Assembly: GCA_905235285.1 (NCBI GenBank)
Contig: CAJOLI010000013.1
Coordinates: 6,116 to 70,115 of the forward strand
Direction of reading: 5' to 3'
Origin: an uncultured Bacteroidaceae bacterium
Lineage (GTDB): Bacteria > Bacteroidota > Bacteroidia > Bacteroidales > Bacteroidaceae
Length of the DNA: 64,000 nucleotides
Part shown: positions 1,258 through 42,069 of the stretch, piece after piece
How the letters are laid out: each line of letters starts with the position of its first letter
Numbering within the stretch: the first letter of the stretch is position 1
Made by a program: the position numbers and the translations under genes
The notes under the pieces: model-generated
Database searches by the model: none
Seen by the model: only the letters and a program-made list of their open reading frames with translations
What the model was told of the DNA's origin: nothing

Positions 1258-4200
1258 TTAAAGATTAATCTTCATGCCAAGTTGAAAGGAACGGCTGCTG
1301 GGCACGAGGCCGGCATCTACGCCTTGACAGAGCACCGCGGTCGACATCGAGAACTCGGGGTCGGCTCCGAGATAGCGTGTTAAAGTGAACAAATTGTTGG
1401 CAGCAGCCCATACCTTGATACCTTGAATTGCAGAGATGCGGAGGGGCAAGTCATAGGTCAGACGGAGCGTCCGCAGCTTCAGGTACGAAGCATCCTCTAT
1501 CCAGCGGTCGCTGGCACGGCTGTTACCCATCGGGTCGCCGAAGGTGGCGCGGGGTATGTCCGTCACTTGCCCGTCGGCCATCCAACGGTTCTCCATGGCT
1601 GTCGTCTGGTTGAAGAGGCTGCTGCCTGATTCCAGCTGCTGGCGCATGGCGTTGTAGGCGTCAACTCCGAGGCTGTAGGCAAAGAGGCCGTCGAGGGCGA
1701 GGCGCCGCCATTTCAGCTGCAGGTTGAAGTGGCCGTAGATGTCGGGATTGGGGTCGCCGAGCACTACGCGGTCATGGTCGTCGATGATGCCGTCATGATT
1801 CTGATCTACGAAGCGGACGTCGCCCGCGCCGTATGCCATCTTGTCGCCGTTGGCGCTGATGATGCCGAGGCCGTCGGCGGTTGCTGCACCCGCGTCGGCA
1901 TATACGCCGCGCGTCTGCCAGCCATAGAAGACTCCTGCGGGCAGGCCCTCGGAGGTGAGGATGGTGGCGCCCGCCACATCGGTCGTGAAGGCTCCGCTCG
2001 CGAGTTCCCTGATGCGGTTCTTGTAGTGTCCGAGCGTAGCACCGAAGGTCAGTTTCCAGTCCTTATGTTCAATGATGCGCGCAGAGGTTGAGAGCTCAAA
2101 GCCGCGGTTGGTGAGTTCACCATCGTTGTCCCAATAGTATCTCATGCCCGCCACATCGGCCAGCTGCCTGCGCGTGACCAGGTCGCTGGTACGTGCCCAG
2201 AACACATCGGCAGAGAGCTGCCAGCGGTCGTGCCACAGCGAGAGGTCAAGGCCTACTGAGGCGCGCCGTGTGGTTTCCCACTTGAGTTGTTCGTTGCCGA
2301 TATTGGACAAAAGGAGACCGGCAGCATCCTGCACTGGGGCGACAGCCAATCGATATGTGCGATTGGCCAATAGGGGCAGGCGGTCGTTGCCCGTTTGGCT
2401 CAGCGCCACACCGTGTTCACCGCCCTCAGCCGCTGCATCCACCGTTCGCCCGTGATGAGCCATGCTGCCTGCAACGACGGATTCACAGACCAGCTGACAC
2501 CGAATAAGTCCACTCCCCCCGCCTTACGTCCATAGCGCGAGGACGTGGCCAGTTCCAGGCCGAGGCCGACACTGTATCTCTTGAGAAAAGCATAGTCGGC
2601 CGTCAGGAACCAGGCCGCGTCACGCTCCTTGTCGCTCTCGCCGTCTATCCAGCGCAGGCTGCTGTTGGTGTTCGAGAGTGCGCGCATGAAGTCGGAGCCC
2701 GTATTGTAGCCGAGGCCGGAGTTCCATTTATAATACGTATTGTAGAAGCGCCCTCCGGCGACGAGGTCGAGCGCGTGGCGATAGTCCTTCAGTACGGCCC
2801 AGTCCAGCCGCCCTTCGGCACTCAGCGTGCTCTGGCGCGCCATCAGGTTGGACACCGTGTTCAGCGCAGTAGCATAGACCTCGCCCTGCGCGTTATGGAG
2901 AGGCATGTCGGCCACGCCATGGTCGGGCAGGAAGAGATCCTCGGCCGTCTTGTCCCACGAGAAACCGAGCGTGGCATTCAGTTTGAGGCGGTCAGTGAAG
3001 GCATACGACGGCCGCAGGTTGAGGTTGAAGCGGTAGCGGTCGATGTCGGGCAGGTTGTCGCCCGTCAGTGCGATAGGGTTACCGACGCCCAGTTCGTCGG
3101 TGTCGTTCATGCGATTAGTTTCCTGCCCACTTAGGTTATGCTGCCACGGGCCGTAGAGGGGCGATTTCACCATAGCCAGATAGGCTGGATTGTGCACATC
3201 GTCGAGTCCGTCGATGTTCACGCGCGACATCGTTTGGGCGTAGGCAATATCTGCCGCGAGGAAGAGCCGCTCCGTCAGGTGGATGTCGCTGTTGAAGCGC
3301 ACGTTCAGGCGTCCGAAGCTGGTGCCGTCCACATTGCCTTCGTTCTTGCCGTAGCCAAGCGAGAAGCGGTAGAGCGCCACGTCATCGCCACCCGCCACGT
3401 TGATGCCATACTGTTGCATGAAGCCCGTCCGATTCACTTCGCTGATCCAGTCAGTCTGCTGGTGCGTGTCCCAGTAGTAGGAACGCGACGGGTCGTTTTG
3501 CGTGAAGTGTAGTGCCCCCCGTTCTTCCGCCTTCATGCCGCGCATGACGTCGGTAGCGTAGCGGGTGTAGGCCTCGGCCTGCATCATCGTGGGTGACGAG
3601 TAGGGCGTCACGAAACCCATCGAGAGGTTAGCTTCGATGCGCGTAGCCATGTCCTTGGCGCGCCGCGTCCTGATCATGACTACGCCTGCGGCGCCCTTCG
3701 CGCCCCAGATGGCCGTGCCGTCGCGCATGACGTCGATGCTCTCGATGTCATCGGGGTCGATCAGGCTCAGAGGGTTGTCAGTGTAGCCAGCGACGGAGGT
3801 GTGAGCATCCTCCTGCATCTGCCACACCGCGCCATCTACGACGAAAAGCGGCTGGCTGCTGAGGTTGATGCTCTGCAGGCCGCGCACGAAATAGGTCTCG
3901 CCGCTGCCCGGCTGTCCGCTCTGCCGTGTAGCGCGCAGCGGACCCGTTATCCTCAAGTTCAGCTCTGAAGGAGTGGAGTCATCAATGGCGTCGAGCAGAC
4001 GAACGAGGATGTCCGTGCGCCCTTGCACAGCCACTACCTGCCCGACGCAGCCAGGAGCCGTAACCTCGAGCAGGACGCCCGTCCCGACGTGAGCCTGTCG
4101 AGTCGTCGACGGCAGCCGGATCTCGAACCGGCCATCATCGTCGGTCATCGCGCTCGCCCTGAGTTCAGCCGAAGTAATGCTGGCTCCGGCGAAGCCCTCA

Positions 4201-12500: not shown

Positions 12501-12864
12501 TGCCGCCCGACGAGACGGTGCGTGTGGCTTTCACGACGACCTCCGTGAGCACGTTCTTGGCCTTCAGCATCACGTTGACCTTGCGCTGCCCGCGAATCGG
12601 TACCACCTGTTTCGTATAGCCCACGTAGCTGAACATGAGGTCGTTGTCGGTGGACTTCACCGCGATGGAGAAGTTGCCGTCGAAGTCGGTCTGAACAGCC
12701 GTAAGGATGCGCCCGTTCTTGTCCTGTTCGGCCACTGAGGCGGCAATGAGACCGTCAGGCTCATCATCACCGATGACGCGGCCCGTGATGATGGTCTGAG
12801 CGCTCAGGCGAAGCGAGAATGCGGCAAGCAGCAGCATGATAAGAAACCATTTATGATTTACCAT
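9547..12864 (-). CDS. SusC/RagA-type TonB-dependent outer-membrane transporter
   Basis: 1105 aa with a signal peptide and a CarboxypepD_reg segment (ITGRVIGDDEPDGLI...DFDGNFSI). The plug is TMRIRGITSINSNNEPLILVNNIPF. The C-terminus is the typical barrel end YFTLGVTVGF. Confidence 0.9.
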   Translation of the reverse strand: MVNHKWFLIMLLLAAFSLRLSAQTIITGRVIGDDEPDGLIAASVAEQDKNGRILTAVQTDFDGNFSIAVKSTDNDLMFSYVGYTKQVVPIRGQRKVNVMLKAKNVLTEVVVKATRTVSSGGMSIPEREYTGAMQRFSTERLEGMSVTSIDDALQGRIAGLDIVANSGDLGSGTTMRIRGITSINSNNEPLILVNNIPFESNTEGFDFANADNEQFANLLCISPDDIAEVTVLKDGAACAIWGARGANGVINITTKKGVTGPTRVTYSYRLSGNWQPKGAPLLDGDEYTMLMKQAYFNAYREDVRIPEYSYDRQQFLTAYGTAADFNNFTQNTDWVDAVRQTGWTHDHLISLQGGGERARFRTSLGYYRQTGTVIGQGLSRFTGNMNLEYNVSRRLMFASEFGLTYTDNDRNYNDGSVDGLLSIAYKKMPNAAIYRRDTDGAATGEFFNIAQSSVLNADQKDLANPVAIAKLASYQQTNMRIMPTLRLRYDFLDPDDDGRLRYQGYVKFDSENVKDAKFRPRETSTRPWTDGAVGRSYQRESEAMTIYTDHNLTYVPRLGDDHSLMLYASWQMDVGHGKIQQFERYGLPSATAMDVSTGGRMVPESFYSAKNQGRNMACLVSGHYKLLDCYVVDASARWDGSSRFGQDNRWGFFPSFAAKWIFTSEPWMRRAADKWFSEGSLRLGWGVTGNRPDREYLCYSRYDSYGSNYVDLPTIKPASLQLSNLRWERSSSLNAGLELNFLDYRYRLVLNAYHRRTSDLLFANQTIPSSTGFGSISYINAGTMDNNGWELELSTNRMLRRGDWQLDVSVNLSNYRNTIKELDPMVLSSYQAEFSPANGSYLNRIQVENAFGSIYGFRYRGVYQYDKYSAVENAGVSGPNAPVVRDDRGQPVLDGKGETIPMYFDYGRTNYRFRGGDAVYEDVNHDGTIDELDIVYLGNSNPKLDGGFGFTIRWRRLTVNTWANFRLGSKVINYGRMYNENMYSTNNQSIATNWRWRKDGDVTDMPRALYQSGYNWLASDRFVESGSFLRLKQVTVNYNFDPNLIKRAGLNSLMLSLTLNNMLTLTKYTGADPEISPSGSDFGVAKDNNRTPRARYFTLGVTVGF

Positions 12865-12915
12865 TTACGATTTACAATTTAGTTGACAAGTTAACAAGTT
12901 GACAAGTTGACTAGT
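12863..12915. repeat. Short tandem arrays forming the susC 5' leader: (ATTTACR)x3 then (TRACAAGT)x4
   Basis: The sequence catttacg atttaca atttagt tgacaagt taacaagt tgacaagt tgactagt abuts the susC start codon (12862-12864). Confidence 0.7.
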
Positions 12916-12916
12916 A

Positions 12917-13074
12917 GACTCTCCCCCCGCCCTCCAAGACTCTCCCCCCGCCCTCCCTGTTAGGGAGGGAGCGGAATGTATTAGACTGAATGAAAGATAT
13001 CTGCCCTCAAAGGTGATCGCTCCCTCCCTAACAGGGAGGGCGGGGGGAGAGTCTTGGAGGGCGGGGGGAGAGTC
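12917..13074. repeat. Nested palindromic (MITE/REP/RPE-like) element, copy 1
   Basis: Two tandem 19-mers GACTCTCCCCCCGCCCTCC (12917-35, 12938-56) are followed by the mini-palindrome CCCTCCCTGTTAGGGAGGG and a ~45-nt core. The inverted arm then carries two inverted 19-mers (13035-53, 13056-74). The core and arms are about 90% identical to 18408..18523. Confidence 0.85.
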
Positions 13075-13077
13075 AAC

Positions 13078-15753
13078 TTATTTATTATAGGGTGCTACGC
13101 GGTCGACGACGTGGATGACGGCGCGGCTGGAGGCAAGTATATTGTTTGCACGTTGCGGGTCCTTATTGTCTACGATGAGGTCGCGAGCCCAGACGTTATA
13201 CAAAGCGGGATCAGAGGTCACTACGTGCGCAGCATCGTCGGTGCCAAAGGTGAGGCCGTCGCCAGCCGAAGTGATCGTGACGGGGATGAACTGACCACCC
13301 GCCCTACGGGCGGCGGTGTAGTAGGTGCGCGTCCACGAGCCAGTGCCTACGGGCACGGCGCCGTCGATGAAATGGAAACGCAGGAAGTTGAGCAGATAGA
13401 GGCAGCGGGCTTTCTTCACTGCGGGGTCGTCCTCCATCGTGATCTGTTCCCATGTCCACAGGTCGGCATCGGCGCGGAAGGCCGCCTCGATGGCCTCGTT
13501 GGTAGGCACGAGAACGGTGTAGCGGTAGTTGTTGAAGGAGGTCACGGTCTGTCCTACGCCGCTGGACTGCTCGGTGGTCTGCTGATCAAAGATGGCCTGG
13601 ACATCCTTGTCGTCCTTGAAGTAGGCGTAGACGGCGGGGTCGCCCAGCAGGAGCTGGAAGAAGCGGCTGTAGGCTGCGTTGTCGCGCAGAGTCGTGTAGA
13701 CAGAGCGCGCCGGGTCTTGCAGGATGCGGTCGATGAAGAAGGTGTGGCTGTTCGTGGTGACGTAGATGCTGTCGGCAAGTCGGGCGGCGGGCAGCCCGAG
13801 CTCGGCATCGCCGACACCAGCGAACTGGGTGGCGAGGCCGCGGCCGCCGGCACGACGGATGACGGTGCCGCCCTTGGTGAGGTAGAAGGTCTTGTCGCCA
13901 GCGTCCATGAAGCCTGACATGGGTTCGTCCTCGGTGTCGGCTACGACGATGTGCGCGTCGATGATGTCGCGCAGGCGGTTCTGGATGCGGCTCTGGTCGG
14001 CCGACGACGTGCCGATGGTGCGCTGCAGCGCGCCGCGGCTACCGTCGGGGTTGACGGCATAAACGTCGGCCAGGATGCGGTCGCCGCCCATGCGGAAGCC
14101 CCATATCTCGCGGTTGTCCACGCCCGTGTTGGCGCAGATGCTCCAGGAGATGGGCTCGGCATAGTAGCGCACAGCCGAGTCGGTGGGTACGAGCAGGTTG
14201 TACTGGTTCTCCAGGGAGCGCAGGTAGAGGTGGAATTTCAGCTCGTCGTTCTCGTCGATGGCTGCCTTCATGACGCGCGTGACGGGAGAGGTCAGCGTGG
14301 GGGCGTAGGCGCATTTGTAGTCGATGGGCGGGAAGCAGGTGTTGGTGAAGTAGACGAGACCGTTGCAACCCTGCGCCGTGCCGACGATGCAGTCGCGCCG
14401 CACGTTCATCAGGTTGCCTTTCTGGTCGGCCAGGTTGTCCCAGTCATTGGGCAGCGAACCGACGAACGATTTCAGTTGATGGTTCTTGATGAACTTACAG
14501 AGGACATCGATGGGTACGTTGTCCCACGTGCCATAGACCTTGCGAAGGAATGCTCCGTCGTTGCCGTTCCAGTAGGCACGCATAGCCTCGTCGGTAGGCA
14601 CGAGCATGACGCCCATATCGGTGGGCGCACCCAGATGGTTGTAGGCGGGGTCGAAATAGAGCAACCTGTCGTCGGTGAGCGTCTCGGCTTCGCGTCCGGG
14701 CTGCTGCGGCGTCTGCGTGCAGGCTCCTGCGGCATTGTCGTTGAAATAGCGGCGGACGTAGACCGTGTCGGTCACATAGTCGTTCATCTCGTCGGCACGG
14801 ACGGTGACATCTATGTCGGCATCGTAGTAGGGTGCCGAGAACTTGTTCATCAGCAGGGCGAACAGGCTGGTAGCGGCATTGTCTTCGATGAGCTCGGCCA
14901 TATTGGGCAACGCTGTCACCACCTCGTCGGCAGGGTGGAGGTAGCCGTTCTTGCAGGTCGTGTTCTTCGCCTCCTCGCGTACGCGCGCTCCATTTACGTA
15001 GAAACCTTTTTCCTCGTAGGGCGCCCCACCGCCAATGAGTTCCCAGTCGGCCTCCGTGATGCCGCGTTTCTGCATGAAGGCAGGCGTGAAGATGACATCG
15101 GGGCGGGCCTCGTTGTCCACAATCCATGCACCACCGCGTTGGGCGAAGCGTGCCCACCACTTGGTGGCTGGCAGACGGTCAGCATCGAAGTGCCGGATGC
15201 GGTCGTAGATGGTAGACGAGGCGTCGCGCAGCACGGCCATTCCCTCGCCGTCATCGTCGCTGTTGGCGTTGGGCACGTTGGCCAACATCTTGTCCAGATA
15301 GGCCATATTGAGCATCGAGGCATTGAAAAGGTAGTTGGCATCGGCACGCGTGAGGCCGACGGCTATGTCGGTAGGCGAAGAGCCATTAAGGCCATGAGCG
15401 CTGAAATAGCGGGCATAAGCGTCGTCGGTAGCAGGGAAGAGCGTCTTGCTGCCCGTCCGGGCAAGGGTGCCGTCGAGGCCGAGGCGGTCGATGAGCGTCA
15501 GGTAGGTGGCATAGTGCCCGTCGGCTCGCAGCCAGTCATAGACGCTGCTCCCTAACCATGTAGGTTCCTCGTTGTCGTAGGCGTAGTCATCGCGGCACGA
15601 CGAGAAGCCCAGCATCGTCAGCGCCAGCAGCAGAATGCTTCCGAGGCATTGGCGGCGCCAGCGGCGGGGACGGCTCGACAAGCTCACGTCAGGACGCTTC
15701 GACAAGCTCGCGCCAAGACGGCTAAGGTGAAGTTGTTGGATGAGTGTGATCAT
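13078..15753 (-). CDS. Multi-FAS1 (fasciclin) domain lipoprotein
   Basis: 891 aa with repeated FAS1 signatures (GSKTLFPATDDAYARYF; YTVLVPTNEAIEAAF...AVIHVVDRV) and a lipobox MLGFSSC. The N-terminal 35 aa carry a repeat motif, and an alternative GTG start exists at 15687. Confidence 0.7.
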   Translation of the reverse strand: MITLIQQLHLSRLGASLSKRPDVSLSSRPRRWRRQCLGSILLLALTMLGFSSCRDDYAYDNEEPTWLGSSVYDWLRADGHYATYLTLIDRLGLDGTLARTGSKTLFPATDDAYARYFSAHGLNGSSPTDIAVGLTRADANYLFNASMLNMAYLDKMLANVPNANSDDDGEGMAVLRDASSTIYDRIRHFDADRLPATKWWARFAQRGGAWIVDNEARPDVIFTPAFMQKRGITEADWELIGGGAPYEEKGFYVNGARVREEAKNTTCKNGYLHPADEVVTALPNMAELIEDNAATSLFALLMNKFSAPYYDADIDVTVRADEMNDYVTDTVYVRRYFNDNAAGACTQTPQQPGREAETLTDDRLLYFDPAYNHLGAPTDMGVMLVPTDEAMRAYWNGNDGAFLRKVYGTWDNVPIDVLCKFIKNHQLKSFVGSLPNDWDNLADQKGNLMNVRRDCIVGTAQGCNGLVYFTNTCFPPIDYKCAYAPTLTSPVTRVMKAAIDENDELKFHLYLRSLENQYNLLVPTDSAVRYYAEPISWSICANTGVDNREIWGFRMGGDRILADVYAVNPDGSRGALQRTIGTSSADQSRIQNRLRDIIDAHIVVADTEDEPMSGFMDAGDKTFYLTKGGTVIRRAGGRGLATQFAGVGDAELGLPAARLADSIYVTTNSHTFFIDRILQDPARSVYTTLRDNAAYSRFFQLLLGDPAVYAYFKDDKDVQAIFDQQTTEQSSGVGQTVTSFNNYRYTVLVPTNEAIEAAFRADADLWTWEQITMEDDPAVKKARCLYLLNFLRFHFIDGAVPVGTGSWTRTYYTAARRAGGQFIPVTITSAGDGLTFGTDDAAHVVTSDPALYNVWARDLIVDNKDPQRANNILASSRAVIHVVDRVAPYNK
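15675..15719 (+). repeat. Tandem pair of the 21-nt motif TCGACAAGCTCACGTCAGGAC (second copy 18/21)
   Basis: 15675-15695 is an exact reverse complement of 4292-4312. 15699-15719 reads TCGACAAGCTCGCGCCAAGAC. Confidence 0.8.
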
Positions 15754-18176: not shown

Positions 18177-18255
18177 GTTTGTCGTCTCGTTGTCTGCCGT
18201 GAAACCTTGCGTCCCTTTTTACGCCAGATGCGTCAATAGTCCATTTGCGATGCAT

Positions 18256-18272
18256 TTATTTGCATCAAATAA
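18256..18272. promoter_or_regulatory. 17-bp palindrome TTATTTG-CAT-CAAATAA in the divergent GH92/HTCS control region
   Basis: Perfect 7-bp arms lying between the two -7 boxes. Confidence 0.35.
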
Positions 18273-18294
18273 GCATTTGTTCCCCCTTTTTTTG

Positions 18295-18302
18295 TACCTT
18301 TG
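18295..18302 (+). promoter_or_regulatory. -7 promoter box TACCTTTG for the HTCS gene
   Basis: Exact match 22 nt upstream of the ATG at 18324. The track ORF start at 18300 is a TTG lying inside this box. Confidence 0.5.
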
Positions 18303-18323
18303 CATCGAAAAACCCGATTCACT

Positions 18324-21300
18324 ATGCACATAAGACCTATCCTTTTATTGCTGCTGAGCTGTCTGACGATGACGGCAGCGGCGGTTCCCCGCAAAGACCC
18401 ACCCCCAGACTCTCCCCCCGCCCTCCCTGTTAGGGAGGGAGCAGATACCATCAGACTGGATGAAAGATATCTGCCCTCAAAGGTGACCGCTCCCTCCCTA
18501 ACAGGGAGGGCTGGGGGAGAGTCCGGCTTCCTGACCGTGGACAGCCGTTCGGGGCTGGCGCAGAACAACGTGAAGAGCATCGCTCAGGATGACTTCGGCT
18601 TCGTATGGCTGGGCACCAAGAACGGGCTGTGCCGCTACGACGGCCGCTCGCTGCGCACAGTGCGTGTGGCGGATGGCGATACGGGGGCTGCCAACCAGAA
18701 CATCTCGGCGCTGGAGCGGGAGGCGGGCCACCTGCTGTGGGTGGGCACCGACCAGGGGCTGTTCCTCTACGACCTGAGCGCGGACCGCTTCCTCCATGTG
18801 GAGACGGCTGCTGCCGACGGGCAGCGGATGACGAACTGGGTGTCCGAGATCTGGCACGACGGCGAGGGCAATGTCTGGGTGGTGGTGCCCGACGAGGGCA
18901 TTTTCAGAATTGCCTGTGCAGGGGGTGGCGGCGCCGAGGCGATGGCCACGGCTCCGCTGCACCATTATGCCAATCCGGGGCAGACGAGTTCGAACCACTT
19001 CAGCTGCCTCAGCGTGGGACCCGGCGGCGAGGTGTGGGCCAGCGGATGGAACATTGGGCTGTGGCGCTACGTGCCGCAGACCGACGGCTTCGAGCAGCTG
19101 CGCGAGGATGCCACGGGGCGCCCGCTGGTGGGCATCCAGACGAACACGCTGACGTCGCTGGCCGACGGCTCGCTGGCGATGGCGGTGCAGGACGGGCACC
19201 TGTTGCTCTACTCCCCCATCAGGGGCGAGCTGACGGAGAACCCGTGGCAGGATTTCAGTGCGACCATCGTGCGCGGCGCCAGGGCCTACGGTGAGACGCT
19301 GCTCGTGGGCACCTACGACGGGCTCTACCTCATCAACACGCGGACGGGCGAGGCGGCCCACTACAGCCACGACCGCAACAACCGTCTCAGCCTCTCCGAC
19401 GATATCATCTACTCCATCTTCCGCGACCGCGAGGGTGGCTACTGGCTCGGCACCATGTTCGGCGGCGCGGCCTACCTGCCTGCGCGCGAGCAGATGTTCA
19501 CGGTCATCCAGTGCGACGATGTGGGCCGCACGCTCTCGAGCGACCGCATTCGCCAGCTGACCACCGACGGCGGCACCAGCCTGTGGCTCTGCACCGAGGA
19601 CAGGGGCATCAATCACATCAACCTCGCCACAGGGCGTATAACGCCTGACGTAGGTCATACGGACAGCAAGGACGACAACTACACCGTCTGCCTCACCTAC
19701 TTCCAGGGGCGGCTCTACGCCGGCATCAACAAGGTGGGCGTCAAGGTGGTCGACACGCGCACGGGCCAGACACTCTTGCTCTCAAACAGCCTGTTGGGAA
19801 TGCCCGAGGGCGCGAGTACGTACGACATCAGCGTCGACCGTCAGGGCCTCTTCTGGCTGGCCACGGACAAGGGCGTGTGGCGCGGCCGCCTCGACACAGG
19901 AAGCGCGCTCACGTCCGTCGAGGGCTTAGAGGACCTGTGGGCCTACCAATTGCTTCATGACAGGCGAGGCGACGTCTGGGCGGCGCTCATGGGTGGCGGT
20001 TTGGCGCATTTAGATATAAGGAACGGGCGCGTGAGGCGCTACCTGCCCGAGGCCGACAACCCACACAGCCTCTCGTCGGCCAGCGTCAGTGCCGTATTCG
20101 AGGACAGCCGGGGGCGTATTTGGCTCAGCACTGACCGGGGTGGCATCTGCCGCTACCGCCCCGAGAGCGACGACTTCGAGCGCTTCAACACGGAGCAGGG
20201 TCTGCCCGACAACGTGGCCTACAACATCCTTGAGGACAGCCACCAACGCCTCTGGTTCGGCACCAACCGAGGGCTGGTGCAACTGGATCCCGCCACGGGG
20301 CGCATACGCCTGTTCACCACTGCGCAGGGCCTGCCCAGCAACCAGTTCAACTACAAGGCAGCGTTGGCATTGAACGGTAACACGTTCTTCTTCGGTACCA
20401 TCAACGGCCTCGTGCGTTGTCACCCCGACTTGTTGGCCTCTGACGGTGAGGGAGGGCGGACTGCCTCAGCCGCCGACCTGCTCATCACGCGCCTCAGCAT
20501 CGACGGACAGGAGGTGACGCCGCAGTCTCCGCACTCGCCTCTGAAGCACAGCATCATGGAGACCGACCGCATCACGTTGCCCTTCAGGCATTCCAACATC
20601 AGCCTCGACATAGCACTGCTCTCCTACGGCGACCGCCTGGAGACGGCCTACGAGTACCGCCTCGAGCCGCTCGACGAAGAGTGGCATCCAGTGCCTGACG
20701 GCGGCCTGACATTGGCTAACGTAGGTTCGGGCACCTATACGCTACGCCTGCGATCCTCGGGACTCACGGGCGACAATGCGAGCCAGCGCGAACGCACGCT
20801 CATCATCGTCGTGCGACAGCCGCTGTGGCGACAGTGGTGGGCCATCGTGCTCTACTTCATCGCCGCTGCCGCCCTCGTCAGCCTCTGGGCCATCTGGTAT
20901 CGGCGCCGCAAGGAGCGGCAGTTTCAGGAGCGGCAGCACGTCTTCGCCATCGAGAAGGAAAAGGAACTGAGCGAGAAACGCATACAGTACTTCACCGAGA
21001 TTGCGCACGAGATACGTACGCCGCTCACCCTCATCAGCGGACCACTCGAGGTCATCGAGCGGGCGGGCATCGACAACCAGCGCGTGGCCCACAACCTGAG
21101 CGTCATCCATCAGAACACCAACCGACTGCTGAACCTTGCCTCGCAGCTCCTGGACTTTCAGAAGGTCGATTCGGGAGAGTTGCACCCGCAACTGGAGACG
21201 GTCAACGTCAGCGAATTGCTGCGCGACACGATGGAGCGCTTCGAACCTACCTACGCCCTGCGCGGCAAACGGCTCCTACAGCTGCACATCGAGCCTGCCG

Positions 21301-22589
21301 TGCTGGCACAGATTGACCGCGAGGCCGTGACGAAGATCCTGAGCAACCTGCTTAACAACGCGCTGAAATATGGAGAGTCACGCTGCGAGGTGGAATTGAC
21401 CTCCGACCGTTCCAATCTGCGTCTCGCCGTCTTCTCCGACGGCCCCGTCATTCCCATGGAGCGTCGCGAGGCTATCTTCGACCCTTTTGTACAGTTGCGC
21501 AAACGCAAGCCCGACACCGACGAGCCCACCGGCGGCGTAGGCATCGGTTTGGCGCTGTGCCGCTCTCTGGCCAGGATGCATAATGGAACTCTGGTATTGG
21601 AGACCATTGCTGCCGATGGTCCTGCCCTGAGCCAATCGAAGGGCGCTGACCACCCCGAAGGCAACCGCTTCGTCCTGACAATACCCCTTGGCGAGGCTGC
21701 CATCACCGATGATGCCCCCGATGCGCCTGCCCGGCAGACGCTGCCCGATGCGGCCACCCTTCCCGAGGAGCGTCTGCTCACTCAGAGCGACGTGCGCGGT
21801 GCCAACATCCTGCTCGTCGAAGACGAGGACGGCCTCCGCGAGTTCGTCAGCGAGCGTCTACGTGAGGATTTCATTGTCGAGACAGCTGCCAACGGGCAGG
21901 AGGCGCTCGAGAGGATTCGCGCTACACACATCGACCTCGTCGTGGCCGACATCATGATGCCCGTCATGGATGGTATAGAGCTCTGCCGCACCATCAAGCA
22001 AGACATAGAGCTCAGTCATATTCCCGTCATCTTCCTCACCGCCAAGAACGACACCGACAGCAAGATAGCTGGTCTGCAGGTGGGGGCTGAGGCCTATATC
22101 GAGAAGCCTTTCGCCTGGGACTTCCTGCGCATGCAAATCGTCTCGCTGCTCTCCAACCGCCAGAAGGAACGCGAGGCCTTCGCCAAACGCCCGTTCTTCC
22201 CCATGAATGGAATGCAGATGAGCCGCGAGGACGAGGAGTTCATGGAACGTGCTCTCGCGGTCATCAACCAGCATCTCTCCGACGAGAGCTTCAACGTCGA
22301 GGCGATGGCTTCGGCCTTGTTCATGAGCCGCAGCAGTCTCCTGCGCAAGATCAAGACGCTCTTCGATATGCCGCCCCTCGACTTCATACGCCTCATCCGC
22401 CTGAAGAAAGCTGCCGACCTCATCCAGGATGGGCGCTACCGAATGGGCGAGATTAGCCTCAAAGTAGGCTTCAGCAACCATAGTTATTTCTCCAAACTCT
22501 TTTGCCGACAGTTCGGCATGACGCCCAAAGACTTCGAGAAACAGATACAAGAGCAGCGAGCCAAAACGAAGGATCTGCGTCAAAAATAG
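18324..22589 (+). CDS. Hybrid two-component system sensor kinase/response regulator with AraC-type HTH (HTCS)
   Basis: The protein has a signal peptide and periplasmic Reg_prop repeats (FGFVWLGTKNGLCRYDG, repeated). It then has a TM segment, HisKA (FTEIAHEIRTPLTLISGPLE) and an HATPase domain. The C-terminal part is REC (ILLVEDEDGL...VADIMMPVMDG) followed by HTH_AraC (SYFSKLFCRQFGMTPKDF). Confidence 0.9.
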   Translation: MHIRPILLLLLSCLTMTAAAVPRKDPPPDSPPALPVREGADTIRLDERYLPSKVTAPSLTGRAGGESGFLTVDSRSGLAQNNVKSIAQDDFGFVWLGTKNGLCRYDGRSLRTVRVADGDTGAANQNISALEREAGHLLWVGTDQGLFLYDLSADRFLHVETAAADGQRMTNWVSEIWHDGEGNVWVVVPDEGIFRIACAGGGGAEAMATAPLHHYANPGQTSSNHFSCLSVGPGGEVWASGWNIGLWRYVPQTDGFEQLREDATGRPLVGIQTNTLTSLADGSLAMAVQDGHLLLYSPIRGELTENPWQDFSATIVRGARAYGETLLVGTYDGLYLINTRTGEAAHYSHDRNNRLSLSDDIIYSIFRDREGGYWLGTMFGGAAYLPAREQMFTVIQCDDVGRTLSSDRIRQLTTDGGTSLWLCTEDRGINHINLATGRITPDVGHTDSKDDNYTVCLTYFQGRLYAGINKVGVKVVDTRTGQTLLLSNSLLGMPEGASTYDISVDRQGLFWLATDKGVWRGRLDTGSALTSVEGLEDLWAYQLLHDRRGDVWAALMGGGLAHLDIRNGRVRRYLPEADNPHSLSSASVSAVFEDSRGRIWLSTDRGGICRYRPESDDFERFNTEQGLPDNVAYNILEDSHQRLWFGTNRGLVQLDPATGRIRLFTTAQGLPSNQFNYKAALALNGNTFFFGTINGLVRCHPDLLASDGEGGRTASAADLLITRLSIDGQEVTPQSPHSPLKHSIMETDRITLPFRHSNISLDIALLSYGDRLETAYEYRLEPLDEEWHPVPDGGLTLANVGSGTYTLRLRSSGLTGDNASQRERTLIIVVRQPLWRQWWAIVLYFIAAAALVSLWAIWYRRRKERQFQERQHVFAIEKEKELSEKRIQYFTEIAHEIRTPLTLISGPLEVIERAGIDNQRVAHNLSVIHQNTNRLLNLASQLLDFQKVDSGELHPQLETVNVSELLRDTMERFEPTYALRGKRLLQLHIEPAVLAQIDREAVTKILSNLLNNALKYGESRCEVELTSDRSNLRLAVFSDGPVIPMERREAIFDPFVQLRKRKPDTDEPTGGVGIGLALCRSLARMHNGTLVLETIAADGPALSQSKGADHPEGNRFVLTIPLGEAAITDDAPDAPARQTLPDAATLPEERLLTQSDVRGANILLVEDEDGLREFVSERLREDFIVETAANGQEALERIRATHIDLVVADIMMPVMDGIELCRTIKQDIELSHIPVIFLTAKNDTDSKIAGLQVGAEAYIEKPFAWDFLRMQIVSLLSNRQKEREAFAKRPFFPMNGMQMSREDEEFMERALAVINQHLSDESFNVEAMASALFMSRSSLLRKIKTLFDMPPLDFIRLIRLKKAADLIQDGRYRMGEISLKVGFSNHSYFSKLFCRQFGMTPKDFEKQIQEQRAKTKDLRQK
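18408..18523. repeat. Nested palindromic element, copy 2, in-frame inside the HTCS coding sequence
   Basis: The sequence is GACTCTCCCCCCGCCCTCC-CTGTTAGGGAGGGAGC-core-GCTCCCTCCCTAACAGGGAGGGCTGGGGGAGAGTC. It is read as DSPPALPVREGADTIRLDERYLPSKVTAPSLTGRAGGES. Confidence 0.85.
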
Positions 22590-22671: not shown

Positions 22672-22840
22672 TAGCGTGAATCCTGTTTTTTGTTATTCAA
22701 TGGACTGAGTCCACTTTAAAAAGTATGATAAGACCCAACCCCGACCTTACCCGTCCTCAGCAGAGGAGTTCTGCTTCGGTCGCTCAGGATGGCTTGACAT
22801 TCAGTCAACCCATTATTCCCTTCGCTACCCGTCAGGGAGG

Positions 22841-22944
22841 GGAGAGAGGTGGCCCCCCTACGGCCCCCGAGAGGGCTTCTATACCTTTGTTAGCAGAGGA
22901 CAAGGGTTCCGTAGCCCCCTCGGGGGCTGAAGGGGGGCCTCTCC
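22841..22944. repeat. GC-rich imperfect hairpin element in the operon leader
   Basis: The left arm GGAGAGAGGTGGCCCCCCTACGGCCCCCGAGAGGGC pairs with GTAGCCCCCTCGGGGGCTGAAGGGGGGCCTCTCC. The ~34-nt loop contains TACCTTTG. The element is open on both strands (ORFs 22725.. and 22832..23206). Confidence 0.7.
22882..22889 (+). promoter_or_regulatory. -7-like box TACCTTTG inside the hairpin element loop
   Basis: Exact TAnnTTTG match 79 nt upstream of the ATG at 22968. Confidence 0.3.
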
Positions 22945-27242: not shown

Positions 27243-29312
27243 ATGAAAACCAGAATCTTTGCTTTCCTCATCTTCCTCGGCAGCGCACTGGCAGCTGCGG
27301 CGAAGTCGGACGCTTACTCCGTCCGCTTCGACAAGCGTGCACACGCCTTCACCATTCTGAAGGGCCATCAGCCGCTGCTCTCTGATTTTGTGCCCGAAGC
27401 CCGCTTCGGCGCGGAGGTCATCACGGCTGCCGACCTGCCCAAGGTCGTGAAGCGGTCGATGGGCGTGGAGCATCCATCCTTCGGGCGAGGGAACATCCAC
27501 AGCTATACCTTCACCGACGGCAGCAGGCAGATGACCCTCTTCGTCAGCATCTTCGTCGACGCCGTCGTCACACAACTTTCCCTGTCCATGGCCGATGGCA
27601 GTACTGTGGAGAGCAACTACCTGTCTCCCATCCGAGAGCAGGGCACGAGCACAAATAATAAAGGAACGCACGTGCGCGATGCCGCCGTCCGCTTCCTCAA
27701 GGTGCCCTATGACAACGACAGCTTCGTGCGCTATCACCTCCTGCCACTCGACACCGTAGCCACCAGCTACGAGGTGGCGGCCCTCTTCAGTCCGGCTACA
27801 CGCGGGGGGCTCGCCATAGGCTCCATCGACCACGACCATTGGAAGAGTGCCGTCGACCTCGACCACGGCCGTCTCGCCGCCTTCTCCGGCATTTCCACTC
27901 CCGAGACCCACGACGTCCTGCCACACGGCAGTCTCGTCGGCAAGCAGGTCAGCAGCGCACGCTTCCTCATCACGGCACGCACCGACTGGCGCGATGCCAT
28001 GGAACAGTTCGCCCGCACCTGCGACAGCGTACAGCCTGGTCGCAAGCAGTGGCCGCACGGTGCGCCCTTCGGCTGGCAGAGCTGGGGCGTGCTTGCCGAG
28101 AAGAACAGCTTCCAGACCGACCTCGATGTCAGCGACTTCATGGCCACCACGCTTCGTCCTTCCGGCTATTGTTCGACCGACGGGACGCAAGTCCTCAGTA
28201 TCGATGCCTGGGACAACCTCAACGCCCGGCAGAAGCGTGAGCTCTGTGCCCACACCCGGGCCAACGGGCAGGTGCCCGGCACCTACGTCACGCCTTTCTG
28301 CCTCTGGTGGAACGATGCCGACCTCGACCGTCCCCTCTTCGAAGGCTGCCAGTACACGGGCCGTGACGCTTGTGCCAAGGTGAACGGGCAGCCCTACAAG
28401 TACGACGGCGCCTTCTGCCTTGACCCTACGCACCCAGCCACCCTCGAGCGTTTCGCCCGCGAGGCTGCCTCGTTGAAGGCCGCAGGTTTCGAATACTTCA
28501 AGATTGACTTCACCAGCAACGGCATGATACAGGCCGACAGCTACTACGACCCCGCCGTGCGCACCGCCGTCGAGGCCTACAACTACGGCTTCACTCGCTT
28601 CATTCAGCAACTCGACCACGGCGGCCGCGTCTTCACGGCCCTCTCCATCGCCCCCATCTTCCCCTACCACTACGGCAACTCGCGCCGCATCGCCTGCGAC
28701 ACCTGGGGGCGCATCGACCAGAGCGAATATGCCATGAACGCTATCAGCTACGGCTGGTGGACGAGCGAGTTCTACCAGTTCAACGACCCCGACCACCTCG
28801 TCCTCGTTGGCAAGGATGCTGCCAAGGGCGATGTCGAGTCGCTCGGCGAGAACCGCGCACGCTACACCACGGGCGTCTGCTCGGGCATGGTCCTCCTGCC
28901 CGACGTATGGAGCCTCAGCGACAGCAGCGGGTGCGGCGATGCCCGCCTCTCCATAGAGCGGGCCCGGCAGGTAGCCATGAACGCCGAGGTCAATACCGTC
29001 GGGCGCATCGGGCGCAGCTTCCGTCCCCTCTACGGCGGCCGCCAGTGGCGAGCCCAGACAGGTGCCGCCGAGAACCTCGTCACCCTCCGCACCGACAGTG
29101 CCCTCTACCTCGCCGCCATCAACTATGCCGACCAGCCGCTCAACGTCACCGTCCCCCTCGCCGACCTCTATCCCTCCTCGCTGTCACAGGCCAAGGAACT
29201 CTGGACAGGCGAGACCGTCATACTGAGCCCGAACGTTTCCCTCACCCAGCCTCAACTCCTCATCTCAGTCCCTGCTAAGGACGCCCGTCTCTATCGTTTC
29301 ACTCTGAAATAG
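27243..29312 (+). CDS. GH27-like (clan GH-D) glycoside hydrolase, uncharacterised subfamily, paralogue A
   Basis: The start is MKTRIFAFLIFLGSALAAAA (signal peptide). Motifs resemble GH27: PFGWQSWGV (compare GWNSW), YFKIDF (compare KYDNC nucleophile region), RIACDTWGRID and FNDPDHLVLVG (compare WNDPDMLEVG). The track ORF 26319.. is an artefactual 5' extension. Confidence 0.55.
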   Translation: MKTRIFAFLIFLGSALAAAAKSDAYSVRFDKRAHAFTILKGHQPLLSDFVPEARFGAEVITAADLPKVVKRSMGVEHPSFGRGNIHSYTFTDGSRQMTLFVSIFVDAVVTQLSLSMADGSTVESNYLSPIREQGTSTNNKGTHVRDAAVRFLKVPYDNDSFVRYHLLPLDTVATSYEVAALFSPATRGGLAIGSIDHDHWKSAVDLDHGRLAAFSGISTPETHDVLPHGSLVGKQVSSARFLITARTDWRDAMEQFARTCDSVQPGRKQWPHGAPFGWQSWGVLAEKNSFQTDLDVSDFMATTLRPSGYCSTDGTQVLSIDAWDNLNARQKRELCAHTRANGQVPGTYVTPFCLWWNDADLDRPLFEGCQYTGRDACAKVNGQPYKYDGAFCLDPTHPATLERFAREAASLKAAGFEYFKIDFTSNGMIQADSYYDPAVRTAVEAYNYGFTRFIQQLDHGGRVFTALSIAPIFPYHYGNSRRIACDTWGRIDQSEYAMNAISYGWWTSEFYQFNDPDHLVLVGKDAAKGDVESLGENRARYTTGVCSGMVLLPDVWSLSDSSGCGDARLSIERARQVAMNAEVNTVGRIGRSFRPLYGGRQWRAQTGAAENLVTLRTDSALYLAAINYADQPLNVTVPLADLYPSSLSQAKELWTGETVILSPNVSLTQPQLLISVPAKDARLYRFTLK

Positions 29313-29322
29313 ACCCATTCTC

Positions 29323-31674
29323 ATGAGAAAAGCCATATCAATCCTGATTGTGACTATTGCCGCGTTACAGCCTTCACTGCCCCTCCTGGCCGACGACATC
29401 ACCCTGCAGAGCGGCAACCTTACCGTCGTCTGGAGCGAGGCCAACCGAGCCTTCTCGGTGCGCGGCACGCTGCCCGACGGCTCGTCCAAGAGCATCATCA
29501 CCCGCAGCAAGCCCAAAGCCACCTACGTCAACGCCTCTGGCACCGATCGAGGTTTTTTTACCAGCGACCGCTTTGCCTCGGTCGACTACGTAGCCGAGCC
29601 CGTGACCGATGAGTTTGGCGACGGCACCGCCCACCGCTTCACCTTCGCCGCCCCAACTGCGGCTGCCGAGGACGGCGTCGTGATGCAGGAGACCTTCTTT
29701 GCCTACGCCGACCAGCCCTTCATGTTCGTGCAGCTCGCCCTCATCAGCACCGATGGCAGCCCTATTCGCTCCAACCACCTCGAGCCCGTCAGCTGCGAGT
29801 CGGTCAGCTGGCGTTTTCTCAGCACCACCGCTGCCGACAACCGTATGCTGAAGGTGCCCTTCGACAACGATGGCTTCGGGCGCTACCACACCTATCGCCT
29901 CGACCGCGCCATGACGTCCTATGAGGTCAGCTGCCTCTTCGACGGCGCGCAACGCTATGGCGCCGTCTATGGCAGCGTAGACCACAACCACTGGAAGAGC
30001 GGCATCTGCGTCGAGGCCACGGGGGGCACCAACGTCAGCAAGCTGCAGCTCGTCAGCGGTATGGCCGACGACGAGACGCGCGACCACCTCAGCGGCTATG
30101 ACCGTCAGAACCACGGCTCCCTGGAAGGCGACACCATCCGCAGCGCACGCTTCCTCGTGGGCCTCTTTGCTGACTGGCGCCAGGGCATGGAACGCTTCGC
30201 CGACGCCTGCGCCACCGTGCGCCCAGCACGCAGCGACTGGACCCACGGCACACCCTTCGGTTGGCAAAGCTGGGGCGTACTGGCCGAGAAGAACTCCTAC
30301 AGCACAGACCTTGAGATAAGCGACTACTACGCCCAAGTGCTGCAGCCCGCAGGCTTCTGCTCGGACGACGGCTCCATCGTATTCAGTCTCGATGCCAGCG
30401 ACAATATCAGCACGGCACAGCGCAAACAACTTGTCGAGAACGGCAAGACCACCAACCAGCTCATCGGCAGCTACAGCACTCCCTTCGCCCTCTGGTGGGA
30501 CGAAGCCAGCATCAACGGCATCACTGCCACATGGACCGTCGACGGGCAGCAGGTAACACAGCCATATTCCGAAACACTCATCAAGATCAACGGCAAGCCC
30601 GTCAAGTACGACGGCGCCTACTGCCGCGACCCCTCGCACCCCGTCACCAAGCAGGACATCGTCAACTTTGTACGCTCGCGCGCCAATGAGGGCGTCAAGT
30701 GGATCAAGGCCGACTTCCTCAACTGCGGCATCATACAGTCCGACAGCTACTACAAGCAGGGCATCAACACCGCTGTCGAGGCCTACAACGACGGCATGCG
30801 CTACCTACAGCAGCAGTGCGAGCGCTATGGCATCTTCCTCGACCTCAGCATCGCACCCCTCTTCCCCCACGGACACGCCAACGGACGACGCATAGCCTGC
30901 GACACCTGGGGGCGCATCGACCAGACCGAATATGCCATGAACGCCATCAGCGGCGGCTGGTGGACCGACCGCCTCTATCAGTACAACGACCCCGACCACC
31001 TCGTCCTCATCGGGCGCGGCGACCAACTCGGCGCCAGCCTCGGTGAGAACCGCGCGCGCGTCACCAGCGGAGCCGTCACCGGCATGATGCTGGTGGCCGA
31101 CAACTTCAGCCCCAGCGACCAGAGCGGACGCGGCAACAACGCCATGAGCCGACAGCGAGCCGCAGCGGTGCTCACCAACCCTGACGTGAATGCCGTAGCA
31201 CGACTCGGGCGCAGCTTCCGCCCCCTCTACGGCCACAAGGAATACGACCTCAACGACTCCCATGCCCAGAGCCTCTTTGTCCACGAGGCCGACTCGTTCC
31301 TCTTCCTCGCCGCCTTCAACTACACCCCTGCCCCCACCACCTACGCCGTCCCCCTTGCCGACCTCGGCTTAGAAGAGGACGAGGAACCCACGGAGGCCGT
31401 GGAGCTGTGGACGGGCGAGGCCGCCAGCATCGCCACCCGCCAGCTCAGCATCGCCGTCCCGGCCAAGGACGTGCGCCTGGTCCGCCTGCGTCTCGCTCAT
31501 CCTCATGCAGATGCCGTCAGCACCCCTCATCACGAGGCTGCCGTCCTCAGCACACAGCACTTCGACCTCCTGGGGCGCCAGCTGCCTTCCGATACCCACC
31601 ATCGAGGGATCGTCCTCCGCCGCACCCTCCATGCCGATGGCACCGTACGCACCCAGAAAATCCTCCTGCCGTAA
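29323..31674 (+). CDS. GH27-like (clan GH-D) glycoside hydrolase, paralogue B, with a possible T9SS C-terminal tail
   Basis: Collinear with paralogue A (LKVPFDNDGFGRYH, PFGWQSWGVLAEKNSY, WIKADF, RIACDTWGRIDQTEYAMNAI, YNDPDHLVLIG). It has about 90 extra C-terminal aa ending FDLLGRQLPSDTHHRGIVLRRTLHADGTVRTQKILLP. Confidence 0.55.
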   Translation: MRKAISILIVTIAALQPSLPLLADDITLQSGNLTVVWSEANRAFSVRGTLPDGSSKSIITRSKPKATYVNASGTDRGFFTSDRFASVDYVAEPVTDEFGDGTAHRFTFAAPTAAAEDGVVMQETFFAYADQPFMFVQLALISTDGSPIRSNHLEPVSCESVSWRFLSTTAADNRMLKVPFDNDGFGRYHTYRLDRAMTSYEVSCLFDGAQRYGAVYGSVDHNHWKSGICVEATGGTNVSKLQLVSGMADDETRDHLSGYDRQNHGSLEGDTIRSARFLVGLFADWRQGMERFADACATVRPARSDWTHGTPFGWQSWGVLAEKNSYSTDLEISDYYAQVLQPAGFCSDDGSIVFSLDASDNISTAQRKQLVENGKTTNQLIGSYSTPFALWWDEASINGITATWTVDGQQVTQPYSETLIKINGKPVKYDGAYCRDPSHPVTKQDIVNFVRSRANEGVKWIKADFLNCGIIQSDSYYKQGINTAVEAYNDGMRYLQQQCERYGIFLDLSIAPLFPHGHANGRRIACDTWGRIDQTEYAMNAISGGWWTDRLYQYNDPDHLVLIGRGDQLGASLGENRARVTSGAVTGMMLVADNFSPSDQSGRGNNAMSRQRAAAVLTNPDVNAVARLGRSFRPLYGHKEYDLNDSHAQSLFVHEADSFLFLAAFNYTPAPTTYAVPLADLGLEEDEEPTEAVELWTGEAASIATRQLSIAVPAKDVRLVRLRLAHPHADAVSTPHHEAAVLSTQHFDLLGRQLPSDTHHRGIVLRRTLHADGTVRTQKILLP

Positions 31675-40701: not shown

Positions 40702-42069
40702 CTATTTGCCTAACACCTTTGATATCATTTGTTCGGTATTCACGCTGGTTTGTTCGCCAGTAAGCATATTCTTGAGCGTGAAAACGCCCTCTGCCATCTC
40801 GCTTTCTCCGGCAAGGGCCACGAACGGAATAGCACGTGCGTTGGCATACGACATCTGTTTTTTCATCTTACTGGCGTCAGGGTAGATCTCTGCACGAATG
40901 CCTGCGCCGCGGGCTGCAGCCAGAGCCGGCAGGGCATAGGCGGCCTCGGCCTCACCGAAGTTGACAAACAGCAGCTGTGTTGCCGTCGTTATCTCTTGAG
41001 GATAGAGTTCGAGCTGATTCAGCACATCATAGATACGATCGGCGCCGAAAGAAATGCCTACGCCTGACAGGCCGGGCATGCCAAAGATGCCTGTCAGGTT
41101 ATCATAGCGACCTCCGCCTGTGATGCTGCCTATTTCCACATCCAGAGCCTTCACTTCAAAGATGCAGCCGGTATAGTAATTGAGGCCACGGGCCAGGGTC
41201 AGATCCAGTTCGATGGCGTTTGTCAGGGCACAAGCCTTCAGCGTATTCAACACAAACTCCACTTCTTCAATACCTTTCATGCCGGACTCGCTGTCCTTAA
41301 GCACTTGGCGCATAGTATGGATTTTCTCCTCGTTTGTGCCGCTGAGCTTGATGATAGGTTGCAGCTTCTCGATAGCTTCGGCCGGGATTCCGTCTTCTGC
41401 CAATTCAGCATTGACGGCTTCGAGGCCTATCTTATCGAGCTTGTCGATAGCCACCGTGATATCCACTATCTTATCGGCTTCGCCAATCATCTCTGCAATA
41501 CCACTGAGGATCTTACGGTTGTTAATCTTGATGCAGACACGTATTCCGAAGCGGCGGAACACCTCATCAACGATTTGCATGAGTTCGACCTCATTCAGCA
41601 AGGAGTCTGACCCTACGACATCGGCATCACACTGGTAGAACTCGCGATAGCGACCTTTCTGTGGGCGGTCGGCTCGCCAGACAGGCTGAATCTGGAAACG
41701 GCGGAACGGCAACGTCAGTTCCTCACGATGCTGCACAACGAAGCGCGCAAAGGGCACGGTGAGGTCGTAGCGCAAACCTTTTTCGCAGAGCTTGGCAGCC
41801 AGCTTGGGCGTGCCTTCGCCCGTCAATGCCTGCGGATCTATTCCTCGCAGGAAATCGCCGCTATCAAGAATCTTAAACAAAAGTTTGTCGCCCTCTTCGC
41901 CATACTTGCCCATCAGCGTGGAGAGATTTTCCATCGCGGGAGTTTCAATCTGACGAAAACCATAGAGCGCATAAACGCTTCGGATCGTGTCGAAGATATA
42001 GTTGCGACGCGCCATCTCTGCCGGGCCGAAGTCGCGAGTGCCTTTTGGTATGCTTGGTTTTTGTGCCAT
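40702..42069 (-). CDS. hisS: Histidine-tRNA ligase
   Basis: [41 protein letters not shown] and class II motifs ([18 protein letters not shown]). Length is 455 aa. Confidence 0.95.

Follow-up and report, generated by a model that had tools for sequence, protein, structure and literature searches.

A palindromic element read in frame by an HTCS gene of a Bacteroidaceae bacterium, and relatives of it that carry a DUF559 endonuclease gene

The HTCS gene and its palindromic insertion

The DNA analysed here, 64,000 nucleotides from an uncultured Bacteroidaceae bacterium (contig CAJOLI010000013.1, positions 6,116 to 70,115; hereafter the window), contains a gene for a regulator of the hybrid two-component system (HTCS) type that carries a 116-nt palindromic element in frame. 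A preliminary description, made from the letters and their open reading frames (ORFs), had placed this palindrome at codons 29-67 of the HTCS, and every feature that it listed is present. The element, copy A, consists of two terminal inverted repeats (TIRs) around a core. A second copy, copy B, lies elsewhere in the window, which holds no others. The features at the two sites are as follows.

18324-22589, plus strand: HTCS host gene, intact, 1421 aa, with Reg_prop propellers, HisKA, HATPase_c, Response_reg and HTH_AraC
18295-18302, plus strand: Bacteroides-type -7 promoter box TACCTTTG, its position kept in the orthologue at locus L114
18396-18407, plus strand: degenerate duplicated half terminal module GACCCACCCCCA, the last 10 nt of which are absent from orthologues and form part of a 126-nt insertion
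18408-18523, plus strand: element copy A, 116-nt palindromic miniature element, amino acids 29-67 DSPPALPVREGADTIRLDERYLPSKVTAPSLTGRAGGES, read in frame by the HTCS
18408-18442, plus strand: left TIR of copy A, GACTCTCCCCCCGCCCTCCCTGTTAGGGAGGGAGC, 35 nt, holding the hairpin CCCTCCCT-GTT-AGGGAGGG
18443-18488, plus strand: core of copy A, 46 nt, asymmetric; about 10 nt beside one TIR and about 13 nt beside the other match the leader and exit ends of DUF559 elements
18489-18523, plus strand: right TIR of copy A, with a single mismatch against the left TIR
Codons 29-67, plus strand: predicted HTCS insert peptides DSPPALPVR, APSLTGR, junction ...DPPPDSPPALPVR, APSLTGR/AGGESGFLTVDSR
12917-13074, no strand assigned: element copy B, with the inner 116 nt at 12938-13053 and a duplicated 21-nt terminal module on each side

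Each TIR arm has a hairpin of its own, in agreement with the inner mini-palindrome and the core of about 45 nt described before. The 19-nt terminal module of that description is likewise present, with six matches where 0.02 are expected in the window (eight against 0 for the inner hairpin CCCTCCCTGTTAGGGAGGG), but it does not delimit the repeat: the conserved TIR is 35 nt long, or 36 nt with the flanking R/Y base. Relative to the full-length elements described below, copy A lies in the minus-strand polarity. Both window copies have one stop-free frame per strand that encodes DSPPALPVREGA...APSLTGRAGGES on either strand, and the antisense ORF 18233..18580 exists, as had been noted. In a fold computation, the copy A segment as RNA gave -88.3 kcal/mol (z = -9.5). 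Rfam returned no family at gathering score anywhere in the window; a known RNA family for the element was rejected, the E-value mode giving sub-threshold matches only, mostly to generic models of miRNA-precursor hairpins.

The copy at 12917-13074, first described as about 90% identical and intergenic, is identical to copy A at 107/116 positions (92%) over its inner 116 nt. It begins 3 nt past the stop codon of a minus-strand gene (13078..15753), 52 nt upstream of an ATG at 12864, and is not fused to a gene. Short repeats of the word TTGACAAGTTAACAAGTTGAC adjoin it at 12866-12916; these words recur at loci L090, L111, L073 and L102, and the PyrG of relatives has in-frame inserts with similar peptides, VDEFTSKQVDKLN...LVNSST.

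The segment in the HTCS is a derived insertion, since four orthologues, compared as metagenomic DNA and by protein alignment, lack it. The closest protein homologue (P0001/L114) is 86% identical over the aligned part, and the others are 86% (L115), 83% (L116) and 73% (L117) identical. All four run uninterrupted from the signal peptide through ...SQQD, followed directly by GF(V/L)(I/V)VDSRSGL, so that residues 29-67 are an indel. The size given previously, 116 nt, is that of the element and not of the insertion, which amounts to 126 nt (42 aa) relative to the orthologues: the element plus CCCACCCCCA. These 10 nt and the host GA make up the degenerate half-module GACCCACCCCCA. Variant termini GACCCACCCCCC at L111, L065 and L039 support this assignment, and family members often carry partial terminal duplications (12, 15, 18 or 21 nt), as do copy B, L014, L010 and PriA P0012.

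In the DNA comparison, both the TAnnTTTG -7 box and ATG 18324 align with those of the orthologue, and the conserved position of the box in L114 supports this ATG as the HTCS start. The domains of the HTCS were taken from precomputed Pfam matches on an identical 1421-aa product, and all codons and domains are intact. The exact product is called on three public contigs. A strain-level empty allele was sought through exact-protein records of the HTCS and its 891-aa neighbour, which gave filled alleles only; the neighbouring GH92 had no record. An AlphaFold model of the HTCS (11 sequences, mean predicted local distance difference test score (pLDDT) 74) has a signal helix at residues 4-16, residues 15-66 with pLDDT <50 and no secondary structure, and a confident propeller (pLDDT >90) from about residue 70. 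This places the insert between the signal peptide and the first propeller, where it had been predicted to sit. As residues 15-66 are predicted to be disordered, the insert would lengthen a disordered tether that leads from the signal helix to the first propeller blade, and its effect on this PUL sensor is probably near neutral. Conservation of the frame and the need for the signal peptide upstream suggest that it is translated.

A repeat family in genes and at gene junctions

A scan of a one-genome-per-species collection with an exact 23-mer of the TIR returned more than 113 family stretches, a lower bound, in keeping with the original view of a repeated or mobile sequence that is not native coding sequence. 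Among the matches listed, all carriers are metagenome-assembled genomes (MAGs) of rumen Prevotellaceae, Bacteroidaceae or Bacteroidales, from goat, sheep, buffalo, roe deer and the rumen uncultured genome (RUG) sets. The same 23-mer had no matches in IMG/VR and thus gave no link to phages. A search of protein representatives with the 39-aa insert peptide gave seven matches at E < 1e-3 and is useless as a census, given so short a query and a library clustered at 50%.

The loci and the window together contain 73 paired elements with at most five mismatches per arm. The ends, GACTC...GAGTC, are sharply defined; 72/73 elements have R at -1 and 70/73 have Y at +1. The compact copies (98-116 nt) lie almost entirely in coding sequence, 28 of the 30 being inside long ORFs, and 39 of the 73 elements are read through inside real genes. 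Length and frame are constrained in these: with frame 0 counted from the first base of the element on the coding strand, 36 of the 39 read-through copies have a length of 2 mod 3 and lie in frame 0, and thus keep the host frame. The same length class is found in 14 of the 34 others (Fisher p = 2.7e-6; binomial against 1/3, p = 1.9e-14). Both orientations of the element are found in coding sequence. Hosts confirmed by Pfam include AcrB, Topoisom_bac, PurL, PyrG (CTP synthase), HisRS, PriA, DapF, CbiJ-CbiD and CobQ, as well as a GltD-like protein, MFS, Acyl_transf_3 and RapZ. Most have Pfam domains on both sides of the insert, and the inserts are mostly at domain boundaries or termini.

Related families of hairpin repeats are nested in some arms, and they too insert in frame. 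One loop of PyrG, KRRMLR...DFVITE, is a hot spot with more than 10 different in-frame inserts among 120 close homologues (P0020-P0139). These are unrelated to each other, palindromic or of low complexity, 6-50 aa long, and replace a short acidic loop, EDVEEEE, of other close relatives. In the PyrG of locus L073 (5301-7115), two separate TIR arms bracket native GATase sequence, the left arm being read in frame 1. The PurL (57084-57515) and HisRS (41618-42029) genes of the window itself are free of the element at the sites filled in L040/L066 and L104, respectively, and have longer native loops instead.

Elements at orthologous sites provide information on the evolution of the copies. In the PurL genes of L040 and L066, the TIRs are 69/70 identical, whereas the flanks are 80-83% and the cores 72% identical, which suggests either selection on the TIR arms or their homogenisation. 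At another shared site (L010 2445-2599 and L026 2565-2719) the TIRs are identical and the cores match at 79/85 positions when one is inverted, compared to 53/85 in direct orientation; at a third (L075 and L105), likewise with identical TIRs, the figures are 39/43 and 21/43. Such inverted cores between species indicate recombination between the arms. Both core orientations are readable, frame 0 being open on both strands. Solo arms at L102 and L007 were considered as separate insertions and rejected, since L049 and L084 have filled sites there and the arms are derivatives by internal deletion.

The insertion sites share R at -1 and Y at +1 as the only signal in their flanks, and lengths of 116+1, 116+4 and 116-2 nt all satisfy the frame rule. 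Orthologous empty sites (the window PurL and HisRS, L097 and L100) are 72-82% identical to filled ones and differ by loop indels; they are too diverged for the insertion junctions to be defined from them. At the "empty" AcrB site of L097 (~3524-3544), the sequence GACTCGGGGAG consists of the element's first 5 nt followed by GGGGAG of its right arm, which may be an excision footprint or a coincidence.

The remaining 34 copies are not read through, and 27 of them have an organization that we refer to as junction cassettes. Here, an in-frame ATG precedes the right TIR by 3-23 codons (at least 9 in all but one) and at least 149 open codons follow downstream. In 22 of the 27, a long upstream ORF ends -1 to +16 nt from the left TIR, and many cassettes start 0-8 nt past a stop codon. 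The order is stop codon, left TIR, an AT-rich core with stop codons and then the ATG, and a right TIR that continues in frame 0 (APSLTGRAGGES) into the downstream gene. The native N-terminus of that gene is recognisable within about five codons, e.g., IspD VIIVAGGKG, TsaD IILGIESSCDD, ValRS LASKYSPAEVEGKWYQYW, ArgB ITIIKVGG, NadC, HolB and the HAD hydrolase VLFDMDGVLFDS. In the ValRS, TsaD and IspD junctions inspected, no alternative start codon was found on the downstream side of the TIR. The N-terminal peptide predicted at junctions is MNTSSQIHSAPSLTGR. In L017, L074, L018 and L103, one and the same start supplied by the element, ATGAATACATCCAGTCAAATACATTCT (MNTSSQIHS), is followed by different genes. 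The 39 read-through copies and the 27 junction cassettes together give 66/73 copies with at least one TIR arm in a reading frame, copy B being among the few without. Judged from the reading frames, most intergenic-looking copies are predicted to be translationally fused to the downstream gene, and the element would supply many of the annotated start codons in these genomes.

Full-length elements with a DUF559 gene

The longest members of the family are about 465-640 nt and contain a single gene, which encodes a DUF559 endonuclease (Vsr-like PD-(D/E)XK) of 121-124 aa. In ORF clustering across the 113 loci, DUF559 was the only ORF family inside long variants. Examples are:

L009, 581 nt: intact 121-124-aa DUF559 ORF
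L017, 483 nt: intact ORF of the same type
L025 and L043, 489 nt: intact ORF of the same type
L047, 491 nt: intact ORF of the same type
L037, 432 nt: internally deleted DUF559 ORF

These elements open with the left TIR, followed by the leader GGTCACCTTTCAAGAAT, then ATG...DUF559...TGA, an exit start codon, and a right TIR that continues in frame into the downstream gene, which is ArgB, a TatD-like protein or Fmt. In most full-length copies read, the exit start codon overlaps the DUF559 stop codon as ATGA. The ORF matches PF04480 (DUF559) at E = 1.9e-33; its 121 aa comprise the nuclease domain only, with no NUMOD match. It further matches PDB 3HRL, an "endonuclease-like protein" from structural genomics, at 3e-16, and the homing endonuclease I-Bth0305I (3R3P) at 2.7e-3. 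At the positions aligned with the EDxHD catalytic set, its residues (E29, D57, D70, H74 and D83) are invariant in 121 homologues.

DUF559 and TIRs occur together: all 13 DUF559 genes examined are flanked by TIRs. This extends to DUF559 genes with TIRs of the same architecture and different sequence, and to genes found by protein homology alone:

L021, L039, L098 and L059: DUF559 at 74-54% identity, same-architecture TIRs of different sequence
P0180/L119, P0251/L127 and P0257/L130: DUF559 at 69-72% identity, found by protein homology alone, TIR-flanked, with an ATGA exit start

The TIR sequence variant shifts as DUF559 identity falls from 100% to 54%. Identical DUF559 proteins are each found in a single conserved context across many samples. 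The window copies are connected to the full-length elements through their ends; when reverse-complemented, they match these over the TIR plus about 10 nt at 44/45 positions and over about 13 nt plus the TIR at 45/48. At one orthologous junction, the 581-nt DUF559 element of L009 is represented by cassettes of 143 nt in L074 and 138 nt in L017. This is a deletion series in place. The DUF559 gene, the fusion of most intergenic-looking copies to a downstream gene and the invertibility of the core between the TIRs all go beyond the preliminary description.

Origin of the insertion and relation to known repeats

We consider it likely that copy A is a miniature, internally deleted member of a family of small palindromic mobile elements of rumen Prevotellaceae, the full-length members of which encode DUF559. 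In this scenario, full-length elements and deletion derivatives of 133-190 nt occupy gene junctions, and the compact derivatives of 113/116 nt, which are probably non-autonomous, would have lost the internal stop codons. Compact copies that land in phase at permissive positions, such as a domain linker or an N-terminal tether, would be translated and so persist, and one of these would have added 42 aa to the HTCS tether. The DUF559 nuclease may mobilise or maintain TIR elements in trans without target-site duplication. Coupling of the downstream start to the element may stabilise it.

Several observations weigh against this explanation. The census covers 8-kb loci picked for an exact TIR 23-mer and is not a whole-genome count. 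There is no DUF559 gene in the window, and the compact core is homologous to the full-length element only over about 10 + 13 nt beyond the TIRs, its middle being unaligned. No target-site duplication was found when the flanks of 24 and then 73 copies were checked by eye for direct repeats of 1, 2 and 4 nt, and the empty sites among the loci compared are at most 82% identical to filled ones. Neither nuclease activity nor any mobility event or recent transposition was seen, and the predicted translation of the insert is drawn from frame conservation. Finally, a stand-alone 121-aa PD-(D/E)XK nuclease is not a known transposase and could be cargo.

The main rival builds on this last point. The element would be an ordinary selfish repeat of the MITE (miniature inverted-repeat transposable element) or repetitive extragenic palindromic (REP) type, moved by an unseen conventional transposase, either DDE or of the REP-associated tyrosine transposase (RAYT)/Y1 type, with DUF559 as a passenger and the in-frame copies as survivors of purifying selection. 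The anatomy of TIRs plus core, the non-autonomous copies and the nesting of related hairpin repeats are indeed typical of MITEs and bacterial interspersed mosaic elements (BIMEs), mobility of the DUF559 copies has not been seen, and to our knowledge PD-(D/E)XK proteins do not act as stand-alone transposases. Nevertheless, we regard this origin as unlikely. In the 113 loci no other gene recurs between or beside the arms, as judged by ORF clustering only, with no systematic search for RAYT or other transposases. The TIR flanking of DUF559 is complete in the genes examined and the TIR variant tracks DUF559 divergence. A target-site duplication is absent, and the termini are without the GTAG/CGTC tag of REPs.

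A second alternative, which we find distinctly improbable, is that the element is a domesticated module: an invertible recoding segment (intragenic inverton), or a structured DNA or RNA that tunes translation or mRNA stability or binds a nucleoid or repair protein. The inverted cores at orthologous sites with both orientations open, TIRs far better conserved than the flanking coding sequence, the stable RNA hairpin, and the start of copy B and many cassettes within 0-8 nt of a stop codon all speak for a role of this kind. However, the inversions seen are all between species and none is from a single population, no function is common to the insertion sites, and Rfam gave generic hairpin matches below threshold. 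For the HTCS copy, a domesticated inverton or structural role is possible and unsupported, and the insert is dispensable, because four orthologues do without it. The last alternative, that the insert is outside the protein owing to a downstream start, decay of the HTCS to a pseudogene or removal of the palindrome at the RNA level, may draw on an in-frame GTG at 18537 and on a -88 kcal/mol hairpin that should hinder ribosomes 85 nt into the ORF, but it is very improbable, given that the signal peptide needed by a periplasmic sensor lies upstream of the insert and in frame with it, that the start and -7 box align with those of orthologues, that the 126-nt insertion preserves the frame of an otherwise intact gene, and that there would be no selection for frame and length in 36/39 copies if the element were skipped or spliced.

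The favoured explanation, a family of mobile palindromes with DUF559-encoding members, can be compared to several known systems. Rickettsia palindromic elements (RPEs; Ogata et al., 2000) are listed among the intragenic repeats of a review (PMC3184786). The family described here resembles them in consisting of palindromes of ~100-150 bp with many in-frame copies in real genes, including housekeeping genes, that form peptide segments at permissive positions and are usable in both orientations. The RPE-like colonisation of ORFs proposed at the outset was thus correctly described, as borne out by the orthologues, the census and the Pfam-verified hosts. It differs from RPEs in being found in an unrelated phylum and in free-living gut anaerobes rather than a reduced intracellular genome, and in having a DUF559 endonuclease in full-length relatives and stop-restart cassettes at junctions. 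We know of no mobilising gene for RPEs. Since all carriers found are rumen Bacteroidales MAGs, and the likeness is one of behaviour, we class the family as an analogue of RPEs and not as a member.

In MITEs such as Nezha/ISNpu3 and Correia (PMC3184786; PMC11602168), short TIR-bounded copies have the same ends and subterminal sequence as a longer element with a gene, originate by internal deletion and form very stable hairpins; the corresponding features here are 35-nt TIRs and copies of 113-116 nt without an ORF of their own. In contrast to MITEs, there is no target-site duplication, and the only gene of the parent is for a 121-aa PD-(D/E)XK nuclease, which belongs to no known transposase class. 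Furthermore, ~90% of bacterial MITEs were intergenic in a survey of 183,232 genomes (PMC11602168), as opposed to 66/73 copies here with at least one TIR in a reading frame. REP/REPIN/BIME-RAYT systems (PMC3733652) offer hairpin units of ~35 nt in inverted pairs with variable spacers, a repeat-flanked gene, copies directly after stop codons between co-directional genes and long-term persistence at fixed loci. REPs, however, are extragenic, carry the GTAG/CGTC tag and flank a gene for a Y1 (HUH) transposase, whereas the present elements have RGACTC ends, DUF559 and arms predicted to be translated. In the absence of a target-site duplication, a known transposase and the GTAG/CGTC tag, the family is not a demonstrated member of RPEs, MITEs or REP/RAYT.

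The endonuclease itself is reminiscent of Vsr-like EDxHD homing endonucleases (I-Bth0305I, PMC3239194; "fractured genes", PMC2677866). The nuclease domains are homologous with the aligned catalytic residues kept, and a small selfish nuclease gene is situated between or inside host genes without destroying them, free-standing between genes in the case of DUF559. The present elements differ in having long TIRs and no intron, intein, NUMOD or helix-turn-helix (HTH) domain, and in giving rise to miniature derivatives at numerous unrelated sites, an outcome foreign to classical homing. Intragenic invertons, known from Bacteroides and other bacteria (PMC10028968), share with the elements the intragenic inverted repeats that flank a segment readable both ways and recode part of a protein. 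The repeats studied here are instead a dispersed mobile family and not a gene-specific switch, with inversion between species only and no invertase linked to them, none having been searched for in the window or the loci.

Neither in-frame palindromes of Prevotella or Bacteroidota nor a link of DUF559 to repeats came up in a literature search, and the endonuclease link and the junction cassettes appear to be undescribed. The chance that DUF559-TIR elements form a new class of mobile element is substantial. More tentatively, and with somewhat greater doubt than belief, one may envisage an unrecognised class in which the sole protein is a stand-alone DUF559 nuclease acting on hairpin TIRs, the ends are translatable and replace the start codons of genes, and the miniatures spread as readable, invertible inserts. 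The start codon of such an element, which usually overlaps the stop codon of the nuclease gene, would couple the two translationally, and replacement of the start of an often essential gene would make the element hard to lose.

In-frame palindromic repeats have been known since the discovery of RPEs in Rickettsia, their movement is unexplained, and they have mostly been seen as a quirk of reduced intracellular genomes. The present family displays the same behaviour at a large scale in free-living and ecologically dominant rumen Bacteroidales. With a candidate enzyme in physical linkage to the repeats, the mechanism can be tested directly, and a role is suggested for DUF559, a very common family of unknown function. 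If true, the new class would give a function to this widespread family and a candidate mechanism for in-frame palindromes of the RPE type in general.

There are also practical consequences, as gene callers and orthology pipelines will meet indels of 38-42 aa and altered N-termini. A public metagenome contig (L118, 6677-6734) ends inside the equivalent of copy B, and many DUF559 homologues are found on contigs as short as 500-1500 nt; short-read assemblies break at these repeats.

Other repeats were noted in the window. An 89-nt palindrome of another family, GGCCCCCCTACGGCCCCCGAGAGGGC...GCCCCCTCGGGGGCTGAAGGGGGGCC, is located at 22851-22939 between the HTCS stop codon (22589) and a gene of the SASA family (ATG ~22969), and peptides of its type (APLSPPEGG...APSGAVGGA) are in-frame inserts in the PyrG of relatives. 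Immediately upstream, at 22751-22841, is a unit of ~91 nt from a third repeat family, possibly a structured RNA, without an Rfam match. It is 85% identical to two tandem units in a composite element of L033 (2774-2864 and 2940-3030) and 75% identical to L028 3840-3940. Two tandem, C-rich units of 66 nt at 58524-58655 are 89% identical. Finally, the segments 28376-29036 and 30582-31233, ~2.2 kb apart, are paralogous at 73-81% DNA identity and have the look of a tandem gene duplication.

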